From the IMG/VR virus record IMGVR_UViG_3300025570_000007: a stretch of DNA of 64,000 nucleotides. One strand, given 5' to 3'. The notes under the pieces are model-generated. The model was not told the DNA's origin. It saw only the letters and a program-made list of their open reading frames with translations, and made no database searches. The stretch's first letter is position 1; every line of letters starts with the position of its first letter. This stretch comes from a virus. Below, piece after piece: positions 55,189-63,467 of the stretch. A program made the position numbers and the translations under genes.

Positions 55189-56706
55189 TTAAATTAATCC
55201 GCTTAAATCTAATGATATTCCTATAGCTTTTGCAGCTTTAACTAGGATAGGTTTCATCTGCTTTCTCTTCTCCTTGCTACCGTTTTTATAGATTTCTAGC
55301 ATTCTAATGTACTTCTGTCTTGGAGTTTCCTCGTCTTCGTTCTCATACATATCTTTACCGTACTCAACTTCTCTATCTGCTCTCTCTAAATCTTCCCAAG
55401 GTTCAAATGTATCTTTTGAATCATCTTTAGGAGCATCTTTATCAGTTTTATTAGCTTTTGCTTCTCTCACGTAACTTGTTAGAATCCTCTTAGCATCGTC
55501 AATAGCATTCTCTAATTCAGTATCGTCTAACTCGCTCCAGTACTGCCTATCGTCTCCGTCTAAGTACTGTCCTGATACTTTCTCCCATTCATTTTCTATC
55601 TCTCCTCCTATATCCCATATTTTACCTTCTAGTTTACCTATCTGTTCAACATACGGATTTACAACTCTGTCTGTATTTCCTGAGCCTTGCATTGGTCCGA
55701 ATTCTTTTATAGACTTTTTAATATGAGATGATCGGTAATGGTCTTTTAGGTATTCTATTATCTCTTCTGCTGCATCAGATTCACTTACACCGTCCTCAGA
55801 TGCTCTACTCTTTATAATGTTTACAATATCATCTCCATCTCCTCTACCTTCACTAACATCTTCTGTTTCGTTTAAAGCTTGAAAATGCTTTACCATATTG
55901 TTCTTTATAACGTCTCTATGTACTATTGCTTCTCCTGAAGGTTTTACACCTACTTCTCCTATCTCTTTGTCGAAGGAAAAATCTGCTAAATGTAGCGTAT
56001 CTTGGTCGATATGAAAAGCAAAATCATCTTCAAAATCATTCTTATACTTTATAAATATTTCAAATGAATTAGGCTCTACATGATGTATCTTAGCACTATC
56101 GATTTCTTCACCAACTTCTCTTAAGGCAGTCGCTAACGCTTTTCCTACCTCTCTTGCAATTGCCTGGGTCTCTTCTACACTAAACTCTATTCCTCGTTCT
56201 TCTTTAATCTCTTCTCCATCTGCTGTCTTAATACTCTCTACATCAGAATTATCTTTTAACTTATCTAATTCTTTCTTATCTGTATATTCAGCTGGTTGAC
56301 CGTTTATAAAAGCTGTTTTTTCTCCTTCTTTTATTGTAGACTTCTCTAGAAGAGCCTTAATATCACTGTATTTTTTCATTTTTGATTCTTTAATCATAAT
56401 GTACCTATTATCTTCTGTTTTTTCTGCTTCTCCGTTGGAAATAAAACTGTTCCATACTCTCTCTGCATCTTTTGTCATTGCTTGATCTGAGTATAATCCT
56501 TTTGTTAGTTTGTCGTTTGCTGCTCTGTAGAGTTCTTTTCCTATTCCTACTCCTCTATAGTCTTTAGATACTGTAACAGAGTCAACTTGGTAAGAATCTT
56601 TAAAAGGCTTTAACCTCAGTGCTCCTACTTTCTTATCGCCTACTACCGCAATAACTACCTTCTTTCCGTTAGCTTTTATAAAACGAAAGTCTATAGTTTC
56701 TTCCAC
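55189..56706 (-). CDS. Putative internal head polyprotein with N-terminal GNAT acetyltransferase domain
   Basis: VTVSKDYRGVGIGKELY acetyl-CoA motif, then modules split by IKE/LLE/LNE/VRE. GTG start. Confidence 0.7.
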   Translation of the reverse strand: MEETIDFRFIKANGKKVVIAVVGDKKVGALRLKPFKDSYQVDSVTVSKDYRGVGIGKELYRAANDKLTKGLYSDQAMTKDAERVWNSFISNGEAEKTEDNRYIMIKESKMKKYSDIKALLEKSTIKEGEKTAFINGQPAEYTDKKELDKLKDNSDVESIKTADGEEIKEERGIEFSVEETQAIAREVGKALATALREVGEEIDSAKIHHVEPNSFEIFIKYKNDFEDDFAFHIDQDTLHLADFSFDKEIGEVGVKPSGEAIVHRDVIKNNMVKHFQALNETEDVSEGRGDGDDIVNIIKSRASEDGVSESDAAEEIIEYLKDHYRSSHIKKSIKEFGPMQGSGNTDRVVNPYVEQIGKLEGKIWDIGGEIENEWEKVSGQYLDGDDRQYWSELDDTELENAIDDAKRILTSYVREAKANKTDKDAPKDDSKDTFEPWEDLERADREVEYGKDMYENEDEETPRQKYIRMLEIYKNGSKEKRKQMKPILVKAAKAIGISLDLSGLI

Positions 56707-57199: not shown

Positions 57200-57775
57200 T
57201 TACTTGAAATGTTGCTTTAGGTGAGTAGTGTATTCCTTAATTCCGTCCATTATCTTCTTTTTCTCGTTTGAATTAGAATTCCAATCCTCAATATCGCCCT
57301 GTTCTGTAACAAAGGTAGATTTTGCATTCACTAAGTCTAGTGCCCAAGCTTCTATATCATTAGCAAATGCGCTCATATTTCCTTGCATCATTCTCTCCTC
57401 ATATTGCTTATATAGCCCTGCTTTTCTTAACTTAGCTTCATATCCAATAGTGCAATCAAAACAGAATCCATGTATCTTATACATTTTTTTTGCTAAATGA
57501 TGCTTCATCGAACCTTTACACTTCGGACATGTTAGCGGAATACGTAAAGCTTTTTTTGCTGCATCTAGTTTAGTAATATTCTGCTTTAATCCGTTTTTTA
57601 TTGTCCACTGTTTTCCGCCTTCTTCCCAAAAATCTCCTTCTTTATGTCTTTCTGAACTTCTTTTGTATCCTGTTTGAGATTTTGTAGCTGCAGTAAAGTC
57701 TTTATTGACTATATTACGTACTCTTTCTATATCGGATTTCTTAAATTCTTTCTTTAGTAACGATTCTTTACTCAT
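57200..57775 (-). CDS. Zinc-ribbon hypothetical protein
   Basis: CPKC...CFDC. Confidence 0.7.
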   Translation of the reverse strand: MSKESLLKKEFKKSDIERVRNIVNKDFTAATKSQTGYKRSSERHKEGDFWEEGGKQWTIKNGLKQNITKLDAAKKALRIPLTCPKCKGSMKHHLAKKMYKIHGFCFDCTIGYEAKLRKAGLYKQYEERMMQGNMSAFANDIEAWALDLVNAKSTFVTEQGDIEDWNSNSNEKKKIMDGIKEYTTHLKQHFK

Positions 57776-57920
57776 TATTCAACTTTATTTTATATTCATG
57801 ATAAGCTTCAGCAAATTTTAACATCACTTTCCACTTCCTTCCAGCACTTCTTCCTCCTGTGTATATCTCTCTAGGTTGTTTTGCTGACCAGTTACGGTAG
57901 TATTCTTCAACTTCACTCAT
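57768..57920 (-). CDS. Small hypothetical protein (50 aa); missing from the ORF track
   Basis: MSEVEEYYRNW...KFAEAYHEYKIKLNNE*, fills the gap and overlaps both neighbours. Confidence 0.5.
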   Translation of the reverse strand: MSEVEEYYRNWSAKQPREIYTGGRSAGRKWKVMLKFAEAYHEYKIKLNNE

Positions 57921-58458
57921 ATCCTAGTGCTATTAATGTTTGTATTACTTCGTCTGAATCACCGTCTTTGCATCGTATTGCTATACCTCCTGCTTCTTGC
58001 CATTCTTTAATGTTAGACTTCTTATCGTCTATTAGGATTGCATTGGGAGATGCGTATCTCTGCTTGTCTTCCGAGTATGCGAATATAACCTTAGGTGGCG
58101 GTACTATATTATCCCTAACCCAGAGATTCTTACCTAACCTAGATGTGTCGTCTCTAGAAGGAGATGTTAATAAGTCCGGTGTATATTGTGCTAAGAATGA
58201 CCACAGTTTCTTACCTTGTGGCATCCAATTCATTTTTTGCCAAAACTGTATACCTATCTCTTGATCTATTAACTTCCAGAAAATAGGGTCTCCGTAATCC
58301 TCTAAAAATTCATCAGGAGTTTTTCCTGTGAAGTGTTCGAAACGTCCTTTAAAATCTGTCAATACCCCGTCCATGTCACAGTAGATCTTATACGGCGGTA
58401 TTTCTTTAATAGGGTATGCTTCTAATAAATCTACTAATTGTCCCATAACCATTTCCAA
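57913..58458 (-). CDS. HAD-family 5'(3')-deoxyribonucleotidase-like phosphatase
   Basis: DMDGVLTDF, LTSP, K, ILIDD. Confidence 0.88.
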   Translation of the reverse strand: MEMVMGQLVDLLEAYPIKEIPPYKIYCDMDGVLTDFKGRFEHFTGKTPDEFLEDYGDPIFWKLIDQEIGIQFWQKMNWMPQGKKLWSFLAQYTPDLLTSPSRDDTSRLGKNLWVRDNIVPPPKVIFAYSEDKQRYASPNAILIDDKKSNIKEWQEAGGIAIRCKDGDSDEVIQTLIALGYE

Positions 58459-58790
58459 TTTTCTTCTTCTTGTGATGCTTTCTTCTCGTACGGATGATCC
58501 GTATAGGAAAGTCCCATATTTGAATACCTAACATACCAGGTAGGTGACTGGAGGTAGTGTTGGTATTCATGTATTATTGTTCTAGCTAAATCCTCTTTTG
58601 ATTCTATGTTATTACAGTATATTGTGATTTCATTACCTGTAAAGCAATACTGTCCTTTAGCTGTATCTCCTTCATAGGCTAGTTCATACTCTAAGTAAGG
58701 AGTGCATGGTTGAAATTTAGAGTATCCGTAAAAGTTACATACTTCAGTAATATACTCTTTAGCTAATCTCCTTACAGTTCTTTTATCCAT
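58434..58790 (-). CDS. HExxH zinc metallopeptidase-like protein
   Basis: TIIHEYQH...HPYEKKA. Confidence 0.75.
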   Translation of the reverse strand: MDKRTVRRLAKEYITEVCNFYGYSKFQPCTPYLEYELAYEGDTAKGQYCFTGNEITIYCNNIESKEDLARTIIHEYQHYLQSPTWYVRYSNMGLSYTDHPYEKKASQEEENWKWLWDN

Positions 58791-59433
58791 TGCTATTTTT
58801 TACCTTATCTTCCCATGTTCTAAAAGTCATGTTTCCTTTTAGGTATGCTTCTTTTTCTATCTCTTGAAGACTTTCATCTTCATTAACATTAGAAGTGTTT
58901 ACATTACCTAACCTATCTTCCATATTTTGCATATGGTGTATCATCTCATGAGTAAATGATCTCATAACATCTTTCGGATGCCTACCTTCTACATACAGAA
59001 CTACTTCCTTCTTAACAGGATCATAGTAAGCTGTTTTACCGAAAAAGTCTGCTGATTCTACCATATCTCTTCTTATCTTAATTTCCGGAAGAGGTTGTAT
59101 TTTCATACCTAAGTCTACCATGTGTTCTAAAATAGAGCCCATAAAAGGAGTAAAGCTGTATCCAGCACTGTCACTATGTTTTGCTAACTTAACAATTATT
59201 CTATCATTATTAAGTACAACTTCATATTCCTGTCCTAGTGAGTTATAAAGCTCTTTATATACCTGTGTGAGTTTTGCTCTGTCTTCTGAAGCTATTGGTG
59301 CAGCTGGAGATATGTGTGTTCCTGCTGATCCTTCTGTTGTTCTGACCTTCTTTTCGAAGAGATGTTCATCCCTTAAGGTATTATTAACAGCTTCATGCAT
59401 GTTCTTTGTTGCTTCGTCTAGTGCTGATTTCAT
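58783..59433 (-). CDS. HExxH zinc metallopeptidase-like protein
   Basis: TAYYDP...RSFTHEMIHHMQ...EKEAY. Confidence 0.75.
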   Translation of the reverse strand: MKSALDEATKNMHEAVNNTLRDEHLFEKKVRTTEGSAGTHISPAAPIASEDRAKLTQVYKELYNSLGQEYEVVLNNDRIIVKLAKHSDSAGYSFTPFMGSILEHMVDLGMKIQPLPEIKIRRDMVESADFFGKTAYYDPVKKEVVLYVEGRHPKDVMRSFTHEMIHHMQNMEDRLGNVNTSNVNEDESLQEIEKEAYLKGNMTFRTWEDKVKNSNG

Positions 59434-59947
59434 ATTTAATTACATTTATTACATTCTCCTTATCTTCAGTCGATAATTGACTGGGTATCCATTCACCTTT
59501 TTCGAGGTACTCTGTTTGAGTTCTTATAGCAGAAGCAGAGAGTTTATTTTCTTCATCTCCTATCCTTGGAAGCTCTACTAATTCAACTTTCAAGTATTTC
59601 TCCTTATTCCTCTTACTTTTAAAATAAGCAAACTTTTTTAATTCCTCCGGTAATGAACCTGTTATAATTTTCGAATACGTATCGTAATATGCATCTACAT
59701 AATCGTAAATATCTTTTATAGGGGATCCTTTAGAAAGTACTATGTCTGTATTAGCTGGAAGATATTTTAAATATATTTTCCATATCTCTGCTGACTGCTT
59801 AGGAGTTATAGTTATTCCCTCTCTGACTACTGATCCTATAAATATAATTAGCTTATCAGAACTGTTTCCTAACATAACTGCATTTTCGAAGTGTGCTTTG
59901 TGGGGTGGTTTAAACCCTCCTGCGTATAGTGATACTGTTGGTTTCAT
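59393..59947 (-). CDS. HIGH-motif nucleotidyltransferase (cytidylyl/adenylyltransferase family)
   Basis: GGFKPPHKAH...LSASAIR. Confidence 0.85.
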   Translation of the reverse strand: MKPTVSLYAGGFKPPHKAHFENAVMLGNSSDKLIIFIGSVVREGITITPKQSAEIWKIYLKYLPANTDIVLSKGSPIKDIYDYVDAYYDTYSKIITGSLPEELKKFAYFKSKRNKEKYLKVELVELPRIGDEENKLSASAIRTQTEYLEKGEWIPSQLSTEDKENVINVIKYEISTRRSNKEHA

Positions 59948-60798
59948 AGTTCTCTAACTGCTTTTAATGCTTTTTCTTTATTATGTCCTTTATCTGTCCC
60001 TATCTCTCCTGATTTTACGGATACCATACTTTCGAAGATACCTTTTACTCTATTAAATGATCTTTCTGTGGTTAGTTTTCTACTAATGTCTGTCAGTAGT
60101 TCAGCAAAACTTCCTTCTATGTTGTAATGTGTAAGTAATTTTTCGACTAATCTCCAGTCGGTTGTTGACCATATATGCTCTTTTTCAAGAGTATGAAAAT
60201 CTCTATCCAACTTTACTTTTCTTACCTCTAATCTACTAGAGCTAAGGTTAAATTCATACTCTTCATCCCATCCCATAAGTGCAGGAAATTCTTCTATCCC
60301 TAATCGTTCTGCTACTTCGTAAAAATCTTCTTCTATTAAAACTGTTTTAACTAGTCCTAATACTAACCCCTGTTTTTCTGCAGGTAAATTTAAGAAGTTG
60401 TACTTAAATAAACTCTCTTCTTCTGTTAGTGCTATTATATTATCTACCTGGATGCATTCTAAAGCTCCTCTTATTGGAAAAAGAACTGTGATTATCTCCC
60501 CTGAATTGTAATACTTTCTTCCTAGGTATTTACTGCTTCTGAAAGGTATTATAATATGTTCAGGTAAGGAGTTGGTGACTTTTAGTATTTTTTTCTTTAC
60601 TTGTTTCTTATCTGTTCCTTCAATATATACTATTATATCTAAATCTCCATAGACTATTTTCTTTCCTGCAACTACGCTTCCTGACAGTCTTGCATGTACA
60701 AATCCAGGTACTTTCTTTAAGACTGTATCTATGTATGATTGAAATGTATCTTGTACATCTCTCTTATGTATCATCGAACCTCCTGCTACTCCGCTCAT
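59944..60798 (-). CDS. Pol-beta/PolX-superfamily nucleotidyltransferase B
   Basis: GS....K...GDLDII...IQVD. Confidence 0.75.
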   Translation of the reverse strand: MSGVAGGSMIHKRDVQDTFQSYIDTVLKKVPGFVHARLSGSVVAGKKIVYGDLDIIVYIEGTDKKQVKKKILKVTNSLPEHIIIPFRSSKYLGRKYYNSGEIITVLFPIRGALECIQVDNIIALTEEESLFKYNFLNLPAEKQGLVLGLVKTVLIEEDFYEVAERLGIEEFPALMGWDEEYEFNLSSSRLEVRKVKLDRDFHTLEKEHIWSTTDWRLVEKLLTHYNIEGSFAELLTDISRKLTTERSFNRVKGIFESMVSVKSGEIGTDKGHNKEKALKAVREL

Positions 60799-61706
60799 AC
60801 CTTATAAGGTGTTAATTTTGAATCTTCAGGTAAAAATTTTCCTGTCAAGTTTAAAGCTTCTTGTTTGAGTTTCCAATACATTTGACAATCGTCAGGTATG
60901 TCTACTCTTGTACTATCTAATACCTTTAGGTACAGGTCTAACACACCTTCTAAATTAAACTGATCCATGTATGTTTTAATTAACATCATTATATCATGGT
61001 AATTTCTCAGTGTACTTAGTCTAAACTCAAGTCCGTAAAGTGCAGTTAGAAATTCTACTGCTTTTTTAGGTGTATCCGCCACTATTCGCTGAGTTATTTT
61101 ATTCTTAACTCCGTAATTGTGGGAGAAGGTATAGCCTTTATTTGAAAATAGTGCGATAATTAACTGTGTACGGTGTAGCCCTTTTACATTGCCCTCGTAA
61201 CTGTCTGAATGGTATGCGAACTTTAACCAGTCTATATTTCCTATACTTATATCAACTTGTACATTCTCGGGTAACCAGCAGTTATGGTATGCACCAAATT
61301 GTGGTGCTACTAAGAATAATGTTCCTGCTGATGATCCTTTTGCATTTGCTACAAGATCCGTATTAGAGTCATTTAATTTATCTGCAAGTGCTACAATTAT
61401 AGATTTTTTACGAAGTTGTTCATCTGTAGCAGTTCTAGCTCGCTTCTTAAAAACTGTAAAAAGCTTATTAATTATATCGTGATCTAGATCCCAGTCTGCT
61501 AAATCAGTAAATGCATATTCAGATAATGCTAAATCGATATCTCCTGAAAATTCTTTCTTTCCTGCAGAACCTATTAATTCTAATCCGCCTATATGTCTTC
61601 TTGCTTTCGGGAAGACCGTATAAAGTTGTTCGAAGAATAGATCTAAAGTAGGTTGTACGTTTTCTCGTTTAATCCTTGAAGTTTCACTAAAAACATTTCC
61701 TCCCAT
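60795..61706 (-). CDS. Pol-beta/PolX-superfamily nucleotidyltransferase A
   Basis: IGSAGKKEFSGDIDL...VQVD. Confidence 0.78.
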   Translation of the reverse strand: MGGNVFSETSRIKRENVQPTLDLFFEQLYTVFPKARRHIGGLELIGSAGKKEFSGDIDLALSEYAFTDLADWDLDHDIINKLFTVFKKRARTATDEQLRKKSIIVALADKLNDSNTDLVANAKGSSAGTLFLVAPQFGAYHNCWLPENVQVDISIGNIDWLKFAYHSDSYEGNVKGLHRTQLIIALFSNKGYTFSHNYGVKNKITQRIVADTPKKAVEFLTALYGLEFRLSTLRNYHDIMMLIKTYMDQFNLEGVLDLYLKVLDSTRVDIPDDCQMYWKLKQEALNLTGKFLPEDSKLTPYKV

Positions 61707-61731
61707 TCTATAACCTTTTTTAATTAATCAT

Positions 61732-61761
61732 AAAGATAAGAAACAATCTTTAAGTCTACAA
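61732..61761 (-). promoter_or_regulatory. Host-type promoter for the nucleotidyltransferase operon
   Basis: Sense TTG-N20-TATCTTTA. Confidence 0.7.
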
Positions 61762-62538
61762 CTTTAAAACTGTCGGATATTCCTTAAAAATAGGCTTTAC
61801 TTCAGGGTTATCTAATTTATATAGTTTATATATTGTTTGAAATAAATCAAAATTATGGTCTATCTCGTCAACTATCTTAACTTGCCACCCTTTTCCTTGG
61901 TACACTCCTTTCTTTTTCGATTCACTCCTTGTTAAGGCTTTAAGCCAAAGTATACCTGTTCTTTCTATCTTCGTACCTGTTGCTTCTTCTATAGATTTTG
62001 CATAAGCTGAAAGTTGTAGGTTGTAGGCTCGGTGTAAGTTGTTAGAAGTCTTTAAATCTAGTAGCCACACTTCTCCATCCATTTTCACTACTAAATCAGC
62101 TGTTCCTGCATACTTATGTGTATCTGAGTATGTAAATTGTTCTGAGGATATTAGTTCAGGTTTATGTGTTGTCCAAAATTCATGGAACTTTATAATCATT
62201 GCCCATACTACTTGAGAATACTTAGCATTACCGTAGTCATCCAACCAGGTAACTTCTTCTCCTTTTACTAATGCTTCAGCTGCTTCATGTACTTGCGTAC
62301 CTTCTCTACCTGCTTTTGCCAGTATTAAATCAGCATTATGTCCTACATCTTTCAACCAGTTGTCAAAAAACTTATTCTTAGGCATGTACTGTAGAACTGT
62401 TGTGACTGAAGGGTAGTATACTCCTTCTGATCTTCTATATACTCTCCTATCTAGGAAGGTAATTTGTTTTAATTTAGGTTTGAATTCTAACCTCTCTTTT
62501 TTAGCTTCTTTTAAGATACTGTTACCTTCTCTAATCAT
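61756..62538 (-). CDS. PD-(D/E)XK (Cas4/RecB-like) exonuclease
   Basis: YPSVTTVL, GTQVH, YAGTADL, LDLKTS, QLSAY. Confidence 0.88.
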   Translation of the reverse strand: MIREGNSILKEAKKERLEFKPKLKQITFLDRRVYRRSEGVYYPSVTTVLQYMPKNKFFDNWLKDVGHNADLILAKAGREGTQVHEAAEALVKGEEVTWLDDYGNAKYSQVVWAMIIKFHEFWTTHKPELISSEQFTYSDTHKYAGTADLVVKMDGEVWLLDLKTSNNLHRAYNLQLSAYAKSIEEATGTKIERTGILWLKALTRSESKKKGVYQGKGWQVKIVDEIDHNFDLFQTIYKLYKLDNPEVKPIFKEYPTVLKL

Positions 62539-63467
62539 ATGGCATTCATTTTGTGCAACATTAGATTACGAAAATCTAATTCCTTTGTCGACTGTATTAG
62601 TTCTGTGAAAGCTTTAAATCCCATTTCACTAGGATCTTTCTGCTTTAAATCTACTAAGAAAACCTTTTTACCTATTTTAATCAACTCTTCAGCATGTCTT
62701 AGTGCTGCTTTCTGTGCATCTAGGTCTAATGCAATGTATATATCTTCTACGTCTGATGTGATTATTCTCTTCAATAACGAATCTGCTATTGCTTTTCCTA
62801 AGATAGGAATTGAATTACGTTTAACTGCCATGGCATCGAAAACTCCTTCTACTAATATAATTGGCTGGTTCCAGTTAATAAGATTCTCAAAGAAAATTAT
62901 ATTTTTATCTGTTTCTGGTCCTTTGTACTTGAAGTAATTTCCTTCGTAAGTTCGGCCAATAAAGTAATTGAGTTTATTCGATGAAGAATAACTTGGGATA
63001 ATAACTCTTCCGGCATAGAGTCCATCTGTTGCGTATCCAACATTATATTTAATAAAATCATTGTCGGTAAGTCCTCTCTCATATAGGTATCTTCTTACTT
63101 TGTTTGCGATAACTGATACTTTTGTAGCTGAAGCTAGTGGTTGAAATTCTTCTGGTAGTTTAGTTACCTCTTCTCCGCGGTATATGTATTTCTTCCCTTT
63201 CCTTACGTACTTTAGTATTTCGTCTGCTTCGCTTTTAGGTATTTTAGCTTGCTTAAGTAGTGAGTATATCGACTGTCCTCTAGTCTGACATACCCAGCAT
63301 TCCCAAAAGTTTTTACCTTCCTCGTTGGTTCTTAGATTGATCTCTAATTTAGGTTTCTTATGATTACAGAAAGGACAAGCAAAAGCGTGATTATCTCTAG
63401 CTCTCTTATAACTCTTTCCTAAGATACCTTCTAACGACCCTAGTAGAAAAGTATAGTCCATACACAA
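62535..63467 (-). CDS. dnaG: DNA primase (Zn finger plus TOPRIM)
   Basis: CPFCNH...CWVC, VEGVFDA, LDLD, KDP. Confidence 0.9.
   Translation of the reverse strand: MCMDYTFLLGSLEGILGKSYKRARDNHAFACPFCNHKKPKLEINLRTNEEGKNFWECWVCQTRGQSIYSLLKQAKIPKSEADEILKYVRKGKKYIYRGEEVTKLPEEFQPLASATKVSVIANKVRRYLYERGLTDNDFIKYNVGYATDGLYAGRVIIPSYSSSNKLNYFIGRTYEGNYFKYKGPETDKNIIFFENLINWNQPIILVEGVFDAMAVKRNSIPILGKAIADSLLKRIITSDVEDIYIALDLDAQKAALRHAEELIKIGKKVFLVDLKQKDPSEMGFKAFTELIQSTKELDFRNLMLHKMNAI

Follow-up and report, generated by a model that had tools for sequence, protein, structure and literature searches.

Cells and large eukaryotic viruses possess DNA polymerases of family X (PolX). The enzyme of African swine fever virus (ASFV Pol X) consists of palm and thumb only, and that of Phaeocystis globosa virus (PgV) is fused to a ligase domain dependent on nicotinamide adenine dinucleotide (NAD) and performs base excision repair (PMC5537341). 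In bacteriophages the picture is different in the literature consulted: phages go unmentioned in a comprehensive survey of prokaryotic PolX (PMC9226535), the words PolX, family X and Pol beta do not occur in a survey of DNA polymerases from phages, which reports an extra divergent PolA in the immuto group (bioRxiv 10.1101/2024.04.26.591309), and full-text literature searches returned no description of PolX-like enzymes in phages and nothing on the cassette considered here. This cassette was found in IMG/VR virus record IMGVR_UViG_3300025570_000007, from a marine phage of the Flavobacterium type, in a stretch of 64,000 nucleotides (nt) that is referred to below, at its full length, as the window. 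It comprises six overlapping open reading frames (ORFs), A to F, on the minus strand (57913-61706), the first two of which encode a pair of predicted minimal PolX-like nucleotidyltransferases. An earlier note, made from the sequence alone, had described the six genes, a set of motifs and tight overlaps between the genes, and all of these are present in the ORFs of the window.

The closest resemblance of A (60795-61706, 303 residues) and B (59944-60798, 284 residues) to characterised proteins was revealed by their predicted structures. AlphaFold models of both proteins are confident, with a predicted local distance difference test score (pLDDT) of 89.5 for A and 91.4 for B. In Foldseek searches against the PDB, A matched Pol beta and Pol lambda (E 4e-5) and B matched Pol lambda and Pol beta (E 6e-7). 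When the models were aligned with VIA-align, PolX enzymes matched A with Z scores of 9.6-8.7 over 163-186 residues (ASFV Pol X 9.6, with 163 residues at a root-mean-square deviation (rmsd) of 3.4 Å, Pol beta 9.2, TdT 9.1, Pol lambda 9.1 and Thermus PolX 8.8), and matched B over 163-181 residues within positions 6-231 of its model (TdT 11.6, Pol beta 11.5, Pol lambda 11.3, Thermus PolX 10.9 and ASFV Pol X 10.6). These chains align through the thumb to the C-terminus, covering residues 1-240 of the A model and 3-241 of the B model, whereas the best nucleotidyltransferases outside family X reach Z scores of at most 6.8 for A (TUTases) and at most 9.4 for B over about 100 palm residues. For CD-NTases, too, the alignment is confined to about 100 residues of the palm (A, Z 4.5-5.3; B, Z 6.7-8.2), and no CCA-adding enzyme is present among the listed structural matches of either protein. 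The alignments begin at Pol beta residue 102-148; A and B start at the palm and have neither helix-hairpin-helix (HhH) fingers nor the 8-kDa deoxyribose phosphate (dRP)-lyase domain. Judging from the models, A and B are PolX-like modules of minimal size that share with ASFV Pol X the combination of palm and thumb and have extra helical parts, namely a helical insert and a C-terminal helical domain in A. The two proteins had been assigned to the Pol beta superfamily in the earlier note, which is upheld; of the several families it had named, family X is matched specifically and including the thumb, and CD-NTases, CCA-adding enzymes and protein nucleotidylases are not matched in this way, a ranking that makes the CD-NTases and CCA-adding enzymes at most less probable. 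A search of BFVD also retrieved giant-virus PolX proteins and several unnamed phage proteins, and its matches include an entomopoxvirus entry annotated as 'Probable AP endonuclease', which we take to be a PolX fusion.

At the sequence level, A carries the motifs GSAGKKEFSGDID and QVD and the N-terminus RIKRENVQPT, and B carries GSVVAGKKIVYGDLD and QVD and the N-terminus MIHKRDVQDT. In both close and diverse alignments, G46, S47, D56, D58 and D152 of A are invariant, as are G40, S41, D52, D54 and D119 of B (GS...DxD...D), and the three catalytic Asp residues ascribed to both enzymes from the window alone are retained in every lineage examined. With E 0.12, pairwise BLASTP between the two proteins does not reveal the paralogy that had been proposed; however, the family profiles of close relatives align over the palm (61%, E 8e-5), and hhalign of the families built from diverse alignments gave 93.8% (E 1.7e-7). 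Based on this profile-profile comparison and the same predicted fold, A and B are paralogues. Known families are hardly reached by sequence searches. Pfam and PHROGs revealed no significant family for A to E of the window. All of the 1218 homologues of A are unnamed, and neither the window protein nor diverse members of its family match Pfam. B of the window matched only NTP_transf_2 in Pfam (14.6 bits), and DNA_pol_B_palm was the commonest Pfam match of the B family (14 of 20 diverse members at E<1, best E 2.4e-5), exceeding the cut-off of 25 bits in three relatives (P0164, P0147 and P0165; 25.5-27.5 bits). No thumb model of Pfam was matched, and PDB profile searches with A and B (close and diverse alignments), D and E found nothing significant.

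The most constant feature of the cassette is the pairing of A and B. About 160 phage loci have the A gene directly ahead of the B gene or a fusion of both. In a first set, built from 80 IMG/VR loci found with A, 79 of 81 loci have B alongside A; a second set comprises 84 loci from other lineages, and wherever both genes could be resolved (76 loci), A either lies directly before B or is fused to it. The usual order in the first set is primase, exonuclease, A and a single ORF of 670-1210 residues (B-C-D), followed by a separate E or by a different HExxH domain (X) fused to B-C-D, and then by F and a gene for a 191-residue protein. A profile search with B yielded 210 clusters at 50% identity; among the 150 clusters listed, B occurs alone, as B-C, B-C-D or B-C-D-X, or in longer forms with GNAT or extra nucleotidyltransferase domains, and A-B, C-A-B and D-A-B fusions are found among the representative clusters listed. 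Recurrence in the 80 IMG/VR loci shows that the gene order did not arise by chance, and this co-occurrence in relatives, the lack of which would have refuted the earlier note, bears out its suggestion of a coherent, uncharacterised set of genes, which moreover is conserved. Similarly, adjacency in every locus with both genes resolved, together with the natural A-B fusions, lends strong genomic support to the idea that the two nucleotidyltransferases act together, and enzymes that are always paired suggest a heteromeric minimal polymerase. A prediction of the A+B complex scored 0.00, which speaks neither for nor against complex formation.

The separate B, C and D genes of the window appear to be derived. 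They lie in three frames with stop/start overlaps (ATGA at the B/C junction; a shift of one frame at C/D, with the ATG two codons past the stop), and comparison with fused relatives (L002:6161-8167 and L001:6911-9634) indicates that, in the lineage of the window, an ancestrally fused B-C-D gene was split into three overlapping ORFs (58783-60798). Sequencing error was considered and rejected as the origin of this split, since samples from JGI, ENA and Logan contain at least 24 independent contigs with the same six-gene architecture. In other lineages, genes were split independently (A|B|C in L127 and L186) or fused (A-B).

The third gene, C (59393-59947, 184 residues), encodes a HIGH-motif nucleotidyltransferase of the CTP_transf_like type with the motifs GGFKPPHKAH and SASAIR, in which H16, H19, S137 and R142 are invariant, the family as a whole keeping GGFKPPHxAH and SAxxxR. 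The generic Pfam model CTP_transf_like is above its cut-off in relatives of C, and the ESM Atlas places C with phage CTP_transf_like clusters (score 0.96, 209 shared features). All top PDB matches of the C profile are nicotinamide mononucleotide adenylyltransferases (NMNATs; E 0.0025-0.2), led by MJ0541 NMNAT (E 0.0025) and Francisella NadM (E 0.01), so that archaeal and NadM-type NMNATs are, marginally, its nearest known relatives. Downstream of B, as a fused domain or a gene of its own, a HIGH-type transferase is encoded in 69 of 81 close loci and in about 58% of remote loci, the latter being a lower bound because the motif expression and hidden Markov model (HMM) searches used are insensitive. 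In a T4-like contig (L099:7485-12121), FolE2 (GCHY-1), a 488-residue CTP_transf_like-A fusion and a 706-residue B protein are encoded, the HIGH domain being attached to A and not to B. A itself resembles the uncharacterised phage Pfam family DUF6267 in structure (template modelling score 0.60 in the ESM Atlas), which was absent from the module-bearing genomes examined and from the literature searched. A 625-residue cluster of the Atlas contains DUF6267 fused to CTP_transf_like, and the theme of a polymerase fold joined to a HIGH transferase may be broader than the A/B family.

The cassette closes a replication block. Immediately upstream of A lie a PD-(D/E)XK exonuclease (61756-62538; phrog_298, E 8.4e-43) and a DnaG-type primase (62535-63467; phrog_47, E 1.3e-43), both on the minus strand, and F is followed by a few small genes, a GNAT-containing protein and terminase. 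The order primase-exonuclease-A-B is conserved in 72-73 of 81 loci and in further lineages, and in other lineages A|B is located beside genes for ClpB-like AAA+, PolB, FEN/5'-3' exonuclease, SMC/Rad50-like and gp32-like proteins. [quoted passage not shown] Among 185,579 genomes of prokaryotic species, only one contig, of a metagenome-assembled genome, was matched with the close alignment as query. When deposited phage genomes were searched by tblastn with A and B of the window, B was found only in immuto phages, and A also in Sinorhizobium phage Phosso. The A/B family is widespread in phages and essentially restricted to them, and it occurs in replication modules. The homologue in Phosso, a jumbo phage, is distant (L091:6001-6894; 26.6% identity over 167 residues) and solitary among hypothetical genes, B of the window having no tblastn match in this genome.

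The functions listed in the earlier note omitted DNA gap filling and end processing, and the family X match together with the location of the cassette in replication modules makes this DNA reading the most economical one. As a paired and intact PolX-like unit lies in a replication or repair module, transfer to DNA 3' ends is favoured. Our leading proposal, held with rather less than even confidence, is that of a conserved accessory cassette of the phage replication/repair module, in which paired minimal PolX enzymes serve DNA gap filling or end processing and are assisted by nucleotide, NAD and protease functions. A and B would act together as a heteromer, present as a single fused chain in some phages, and would most likely transfer nucleotides to the DNA 3'-OH at gaps, nicks or ends, either filling gaps after removal of primers or lesions by the neighbouring exonuclease or processing ends. 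C would probably make or regenerate a pyrophosphate-linked nucleotide cofactor or substrate for the same process, the simplest candidate product being NAD+ made from nicotinamide mononucleotide (NMN) that is released by the NAD-dependent ligase of the host. NMN recycling of this kind would explain why NadV is not needed: a search for NadV/NAMPT (PF04095) in five large genomes with the module, four of which are at least 94% complete, gave no match. Neither an NAD-dependent nor an ATP-dependent ligase was recognisable in four complete immuto-like genomes, and the absence of both NadV and ligase from them fits dependence on the host NAD-dependent ligase. The putative zincins D and E may process polyprotein forms or remove protein from DNA, and F would dephosphorylate deoxynucleoside monophosphates (dNMPs) and thereby shape the nucleotide pool. 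The PgV fusion shows that viruses build repair enzymes around PolX and offers a precedent for this reading.

A number of observations weigh against the gap-filling proposal. A and B of the window reach no PolX threshold in Pfam or PDB profile searches, and the link of C to NMNAT is marginal (E 0.0025-0.01). The fold is no proof of polymerase function: noncanonical bacterial PolXs without polymerase activity are described in the prokaryotic survey (PMC9226535). According to their models, A and B have no HhH fingers and no 8-kDa domain, the parts with which canonical PolX holds gapped DNA, and gap filling does not explain the need for two paralogues. In addition, one or two polymerases of family A are already present in these phages (bioRxiv 10.1101/2024.04.26.591309), the HMM and motif search detected no HIGH-type gene near A|B in about 40% of the remote loci, and the ATP-dependent ligase that is present in three of five remote large contigs with the module is not predicted by the NMN-recycling idea.

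If C is placed at the centre of the cassette instead, it could be a true NMNAT that restores NAD+ after attack by a host NADase (Thoeris or SIR2-type), with A and B acting on related nucleotides such as signal decoys and F handling NMN or nucleosides. This counter-defence is unlikely, even though the top PDB matches of the C profile are NMNATs without exception, the C homologue of immuto is annotated as NMNAT/NadR, NAD reconstitution by HIGH-type NadM/NadR is established in phages (PMC9503650), and a NadR-type AAA_28 kinase is encoded three genes downstream in one lineage. Every phage with NadM also has NadV (PMC9503650), which is missing from all five large module genomes, and the classic NadV + NadM salvage was rejected on this ground. 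The earlier identification of C as a HIGH-type transferase, with NMNAT among the possible relatives, stands, while the usual partner for NAD salvage is absent. Moreover, the matches of C are marginal and the universal core is A|B and not C, A and B match PolX through the thumb rather than CD-NTases, and in immuto-like phages the AAA_28 kinase lies within the 7-deazaguanine cluster.

RNA rather than DNA might also be the substrate. A and B would then be template-independent terminal transferases, TdT-like or CCA-like, that mend or modify nuclease-damaged 3' ends of RNA or tRNA. In favour of this, the best structural match of B is TdT (Z 11.6), a family X enzyme that works without a template, the palm is also matched by TUTases and poly(A) polymerases, and there are no fingers to position a template; but CCA-adding enzymes are missing from the listed matches, the surrounding genes belong to DNA replication and not to tRNA or RNA repair, and neither an RNA ligase nor a polynucleotide kinase partner was seen in the cassette. 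Such tailing or repair of RNA appears about as improbable as the NAD counter-defence.

A further possibility is associated with the modified DNA of these phages. In immuto, all G is replaced with fdPreQ1 via DpdA3 (bioRxiv 10.1101/2023.04.13.536721), and the cassette might support 7-deazaguanine DNA by repairing what base exchange by DpdA leaves behind, abasic sites or crosslinks between DNA and protein (a zincin serving as crosslink protease, followed by exonuclease and PolX fill-in) or by handling modified nucleotides. Several links to this pathway exist: QueD, QueE and the AAA_28 kinase directly follow A and B-C in the L003/L004/L032/L081 lineage, FolE2 directly precedes C-A and B in the T4-like contig, a DpdA homologue is present in five of five immuto-like genomes (the Pfam TGT model missed it, being too remote from DpdA to be informative), four of five remote large contigs have QueD, and E has sub-threshold SprT-like matches. 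However, this co-occurrence is confounded by shared ancestry and has no base rate, the module is 30-70 kb away from the Que/DpdA genes in most genomes, one complete genome has no QueC and only a divergent DpdA homologue, and the SprT-like matches are not significant. The collection of phage genomes searched by tblastn should include other 7-deazaguanine phages, yet A and B were found only in the immuto phages and, for A, in Phosso. A role of this type seems to us little probable, on a par with RNA tailing. Apart from the cassette, a NadR-type AAA_28 P-loop kinase, annotated as thymidylate kinase, is the neighbour of DpdA3 or QueE within the 7-deazaguanine clusters that four of five immuto-like genomes and the L003 lineage possess (L092:35569-36093, which is immuto gp203; L105-L108; L003:11995-12627), and the 7-deazaguanine cluster of immuto also has a small phosphoribosyltransferase, gp211. 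The two genes hint at a nucleotide-level step in a pathway that has been proposed as purely post-replicative.

The two HExxH proteins had been taken for zincins from their motifs, and further analysis agrees with this view. D (58783-59433, minus strand, 216 residues) has a C-terminal minimal zincin-like domain with HEMIHH, in which H162, E163, H166 and H167 are invariant, and E (58434-58790, minus strand, 118 residues) is a second minimal zincin-like protein with HEYQH, in which H74, E75 and H78 are invariant. The different domain X, which is fused to B-C-D at the position of E in many relatives, has an invariant HEIEH. In D, E and X, the HExxH lies behind a conserved edge strand; the strand-plus-helix core aligns D with E, and the profile similarity of E to D and to X is weak and limited to this core. 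No curated zincin family was matched above its cut-off by D or E, and no PDB sequence match was obtained. The sub-threshold matches are to DUF6782, a putative metallopeptidase family, in 16 of 33 D members (best E 1.1e-4), with M91, M76 and PipA matched by others, and to DUF3920 in 13 of 13 E members (best E 9.3e-4), seven of which also match SprT-like; E in addition matches the metallo-protease phrog_87 (E 8.5e-4). A search with the Atlas's own model of D showed further phage proteins in which this domain is joined to CTP_transf_like or NTP_transf_2.

These recurring combinations bring polyvalent proteins to mind, and B-C-D(-X) might be an effector, delivered or made early, that nucleotidylates host or defence proteins or nucleic acids, its domains being released by the zincins. 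The highly variable architectures, the extra nucleotidyltransferase or GNAT domains, the repeated zincins and weak MPTase-PolyVal matches in a few members are in line with such a protein, and polyvalent proteins with zincin and nucleotidyltransferase domains are a known theme (PMC5512222). On the other hand, the module follows primase and exonuclease in many lineages, and the lineage of the window has the domains as separate genes and yet keeps both zincins, which leaves the effector role decidedly unlikely. One relative of B (P0168, 961 residues) has a GNAT domain after B-C, and three genes downstream of the cassette the window encodes a 505-residue protein with an N-terminal GNAT domain (55189-56706); this acetyltransferase may belong to the same functional set as the cassette.

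The fusion of a HIGH domain with a PolX-like domain could also signify substrate channelling, although this is very unlikely: C would adenylylate the 5'-phosphate of a (modified) deoxynucleotide or DNA end, and the heteromer would join it to a 3'-OH with AMP, not pyrophosphate, as the leaving group. If true, it would represent a new way to polymerise or seal DNA and might install or repair modified positions in 7-deazaguanine phages. HIGH enzymes adenylylate phosphates, and PolX palms catalyse attack of a 3'-OH on an activated phosphate. The related idea of non-canonical nick sealing, in which C adenylylates the 5'-phosphate of DNA or of a dNMP and the PolX-like pair joins it to the 3'-OH with loss of AMP, could draw on that chemistry, on the frequent fusion or adjacency of C to B and on the four complete genomes without a recognisable ligase, but is extremely improbable, considering that to our knowledge such sealing has no precedent, that three of five remote module genomes carry an ATP-dependent ligase and that many phages simply use the host ligase. 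Replacement of a ligase by the cassette is weakened by the same three genomes, the lack in the four immuto-like genomes notwithstanding.

The last gene of the cassette, F (57913-58458, minus strand, 181 residues), has the DMDGV and IDD motifs and matches phrog_2643, 5'-3' deoxyribonucleotidase (E 5.5e-25), in agreement with its earlier description as a HAD nucleotidase with a DxDGV motif; the match to Pfam NT5C is weak (15.4 bits against a cut-off of 24.8). F is, as judged by these matches, a HAD-type 5'(3')-deoxyribonucleotidase (NT5C-like) acting as a dNMP 5'-nucleotidase. Its start codon is uncertain (TTG 58458, ATG 58452 or ATG 58446; gene callers give 177-179 residues). F is present in 56 of 81 related loci, and the 191-residue protein downstream of it is kept in 57 of 81. 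The successive overlaps from A to F measure 4, 4, 41, 8 and 25 nt, and the overlapping string extends past F to 57200 through ORFs of 50 residues (57768-57920) and 191 residues (57200-57775, with CxxC...CxxC), both on the minus strand, each overlapping its neighbour by 8 nt and having no family match. All genes of the window are on the minus strand, and its GC content is about 36%. Just beyond the end of the window, contigs of the same phage have a gene for a SegE-like GIY-YIG homing endonuclease (L082:436-927) upstream of the primase block.

The sole non-coding gap in this region is the 49 nt that precede A. Between the stop of the exonuclease and the start of A it contains a promoter-like element (61731-61761, minus strand) that reads TTG-N19-TATCTTTA in the sequence, and TTG-N~19-TAT(A/C)TTTA(GG) is found at the same site in most of the relatives printed. 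This pattern is close to what we take to be the Bacteroidetes -33/-7 promoter consensus. A generic sigma-70 scan of the window does not call the element, and the motif has no strand bias in the window (10 versus 10 matches), so the evidence for it is conservation across relatives and not enrichment. The host-type promoter that the earlier note had placed at 61732-61761 is thus retained as a conserved promoter-like element, which the generic scan leaves without a call. Many relatives (L001, L002, L005, L036 and others) share a second conserved motif, CTATTTAT, which lies closely behind the stop of the exonuclease at a distance of about 45-60 nt from A and is not obvious in the shorter gap of the window.

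If the pair acts on DNA, the cassette would provide a missing layer of repair or gap filling for abundant marine phages of Bacteroidota, including those whose genomes are fully substituted with 7-deazaguanine. Its presence in a cultured relative, Flavobacterium phage immuto, makes the function directly testable, and compact enzymes with a polymerase fold, perhaps tolerant of modified DNA, could be useful tools.

Compared with described systems, A and B are like ASFV Pol X (PDB 5hr9) in having palm and thumb without fingers or 8-kDa domain and in sharing GS...DxD...D. All 174 residues of ASFV Pol X enter the alignments, 163 of them paired with A and 163 with B (rmsd 3.0 Å for B), at about 12% identity and without a match at the sequence level. 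Unlike ASFV Pol X, they have extra helical segments and a C-terminal helical domain, form an obligate pair of paralogues, are encoded by phages, and have a HIGH transferase and zincins as linked partners. Pol beta, lambda and mu, TdT and bacterial PolX are their best structural matches over palm and thumb, but the HhH fingers and the dRP-lyase domain of canonical PolX and the PHP domain of the bacterial enzymes are absent. As in PgV PolX, a viral PolX core is fused to a second nucleotide-handling enzyme tied to NAD+; the partner in PgV is a ligase and its activities have been measured, whereas the cassette combines two predicted PolX-like units with an NMNAT-like HIGH transferase and zincins. 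C resembles NadM/NadR-type and archaeal NMNATs in its GxFxPxHxxH and SxxxxR motifs and its length, and differs from them in that it lacks a Nudix domain and a fused kinase, that its genome is without NadV, and that its fusion partner is a polymerase-fold domain. Polyvalent proteins of phages and conjugative elements (PMC5512222) are similar in that long variable chains mix nucleotidyltransferase and zincin domains, which also occur as separate genes; the cassette is distinguished by its fixed A|B core, its location in replication modules and its rare and weak MPTase-PolyVal matches. The folds are known from these systems; novelty lies in the obligate pairing, in the fusions and in the occurrence in phages.

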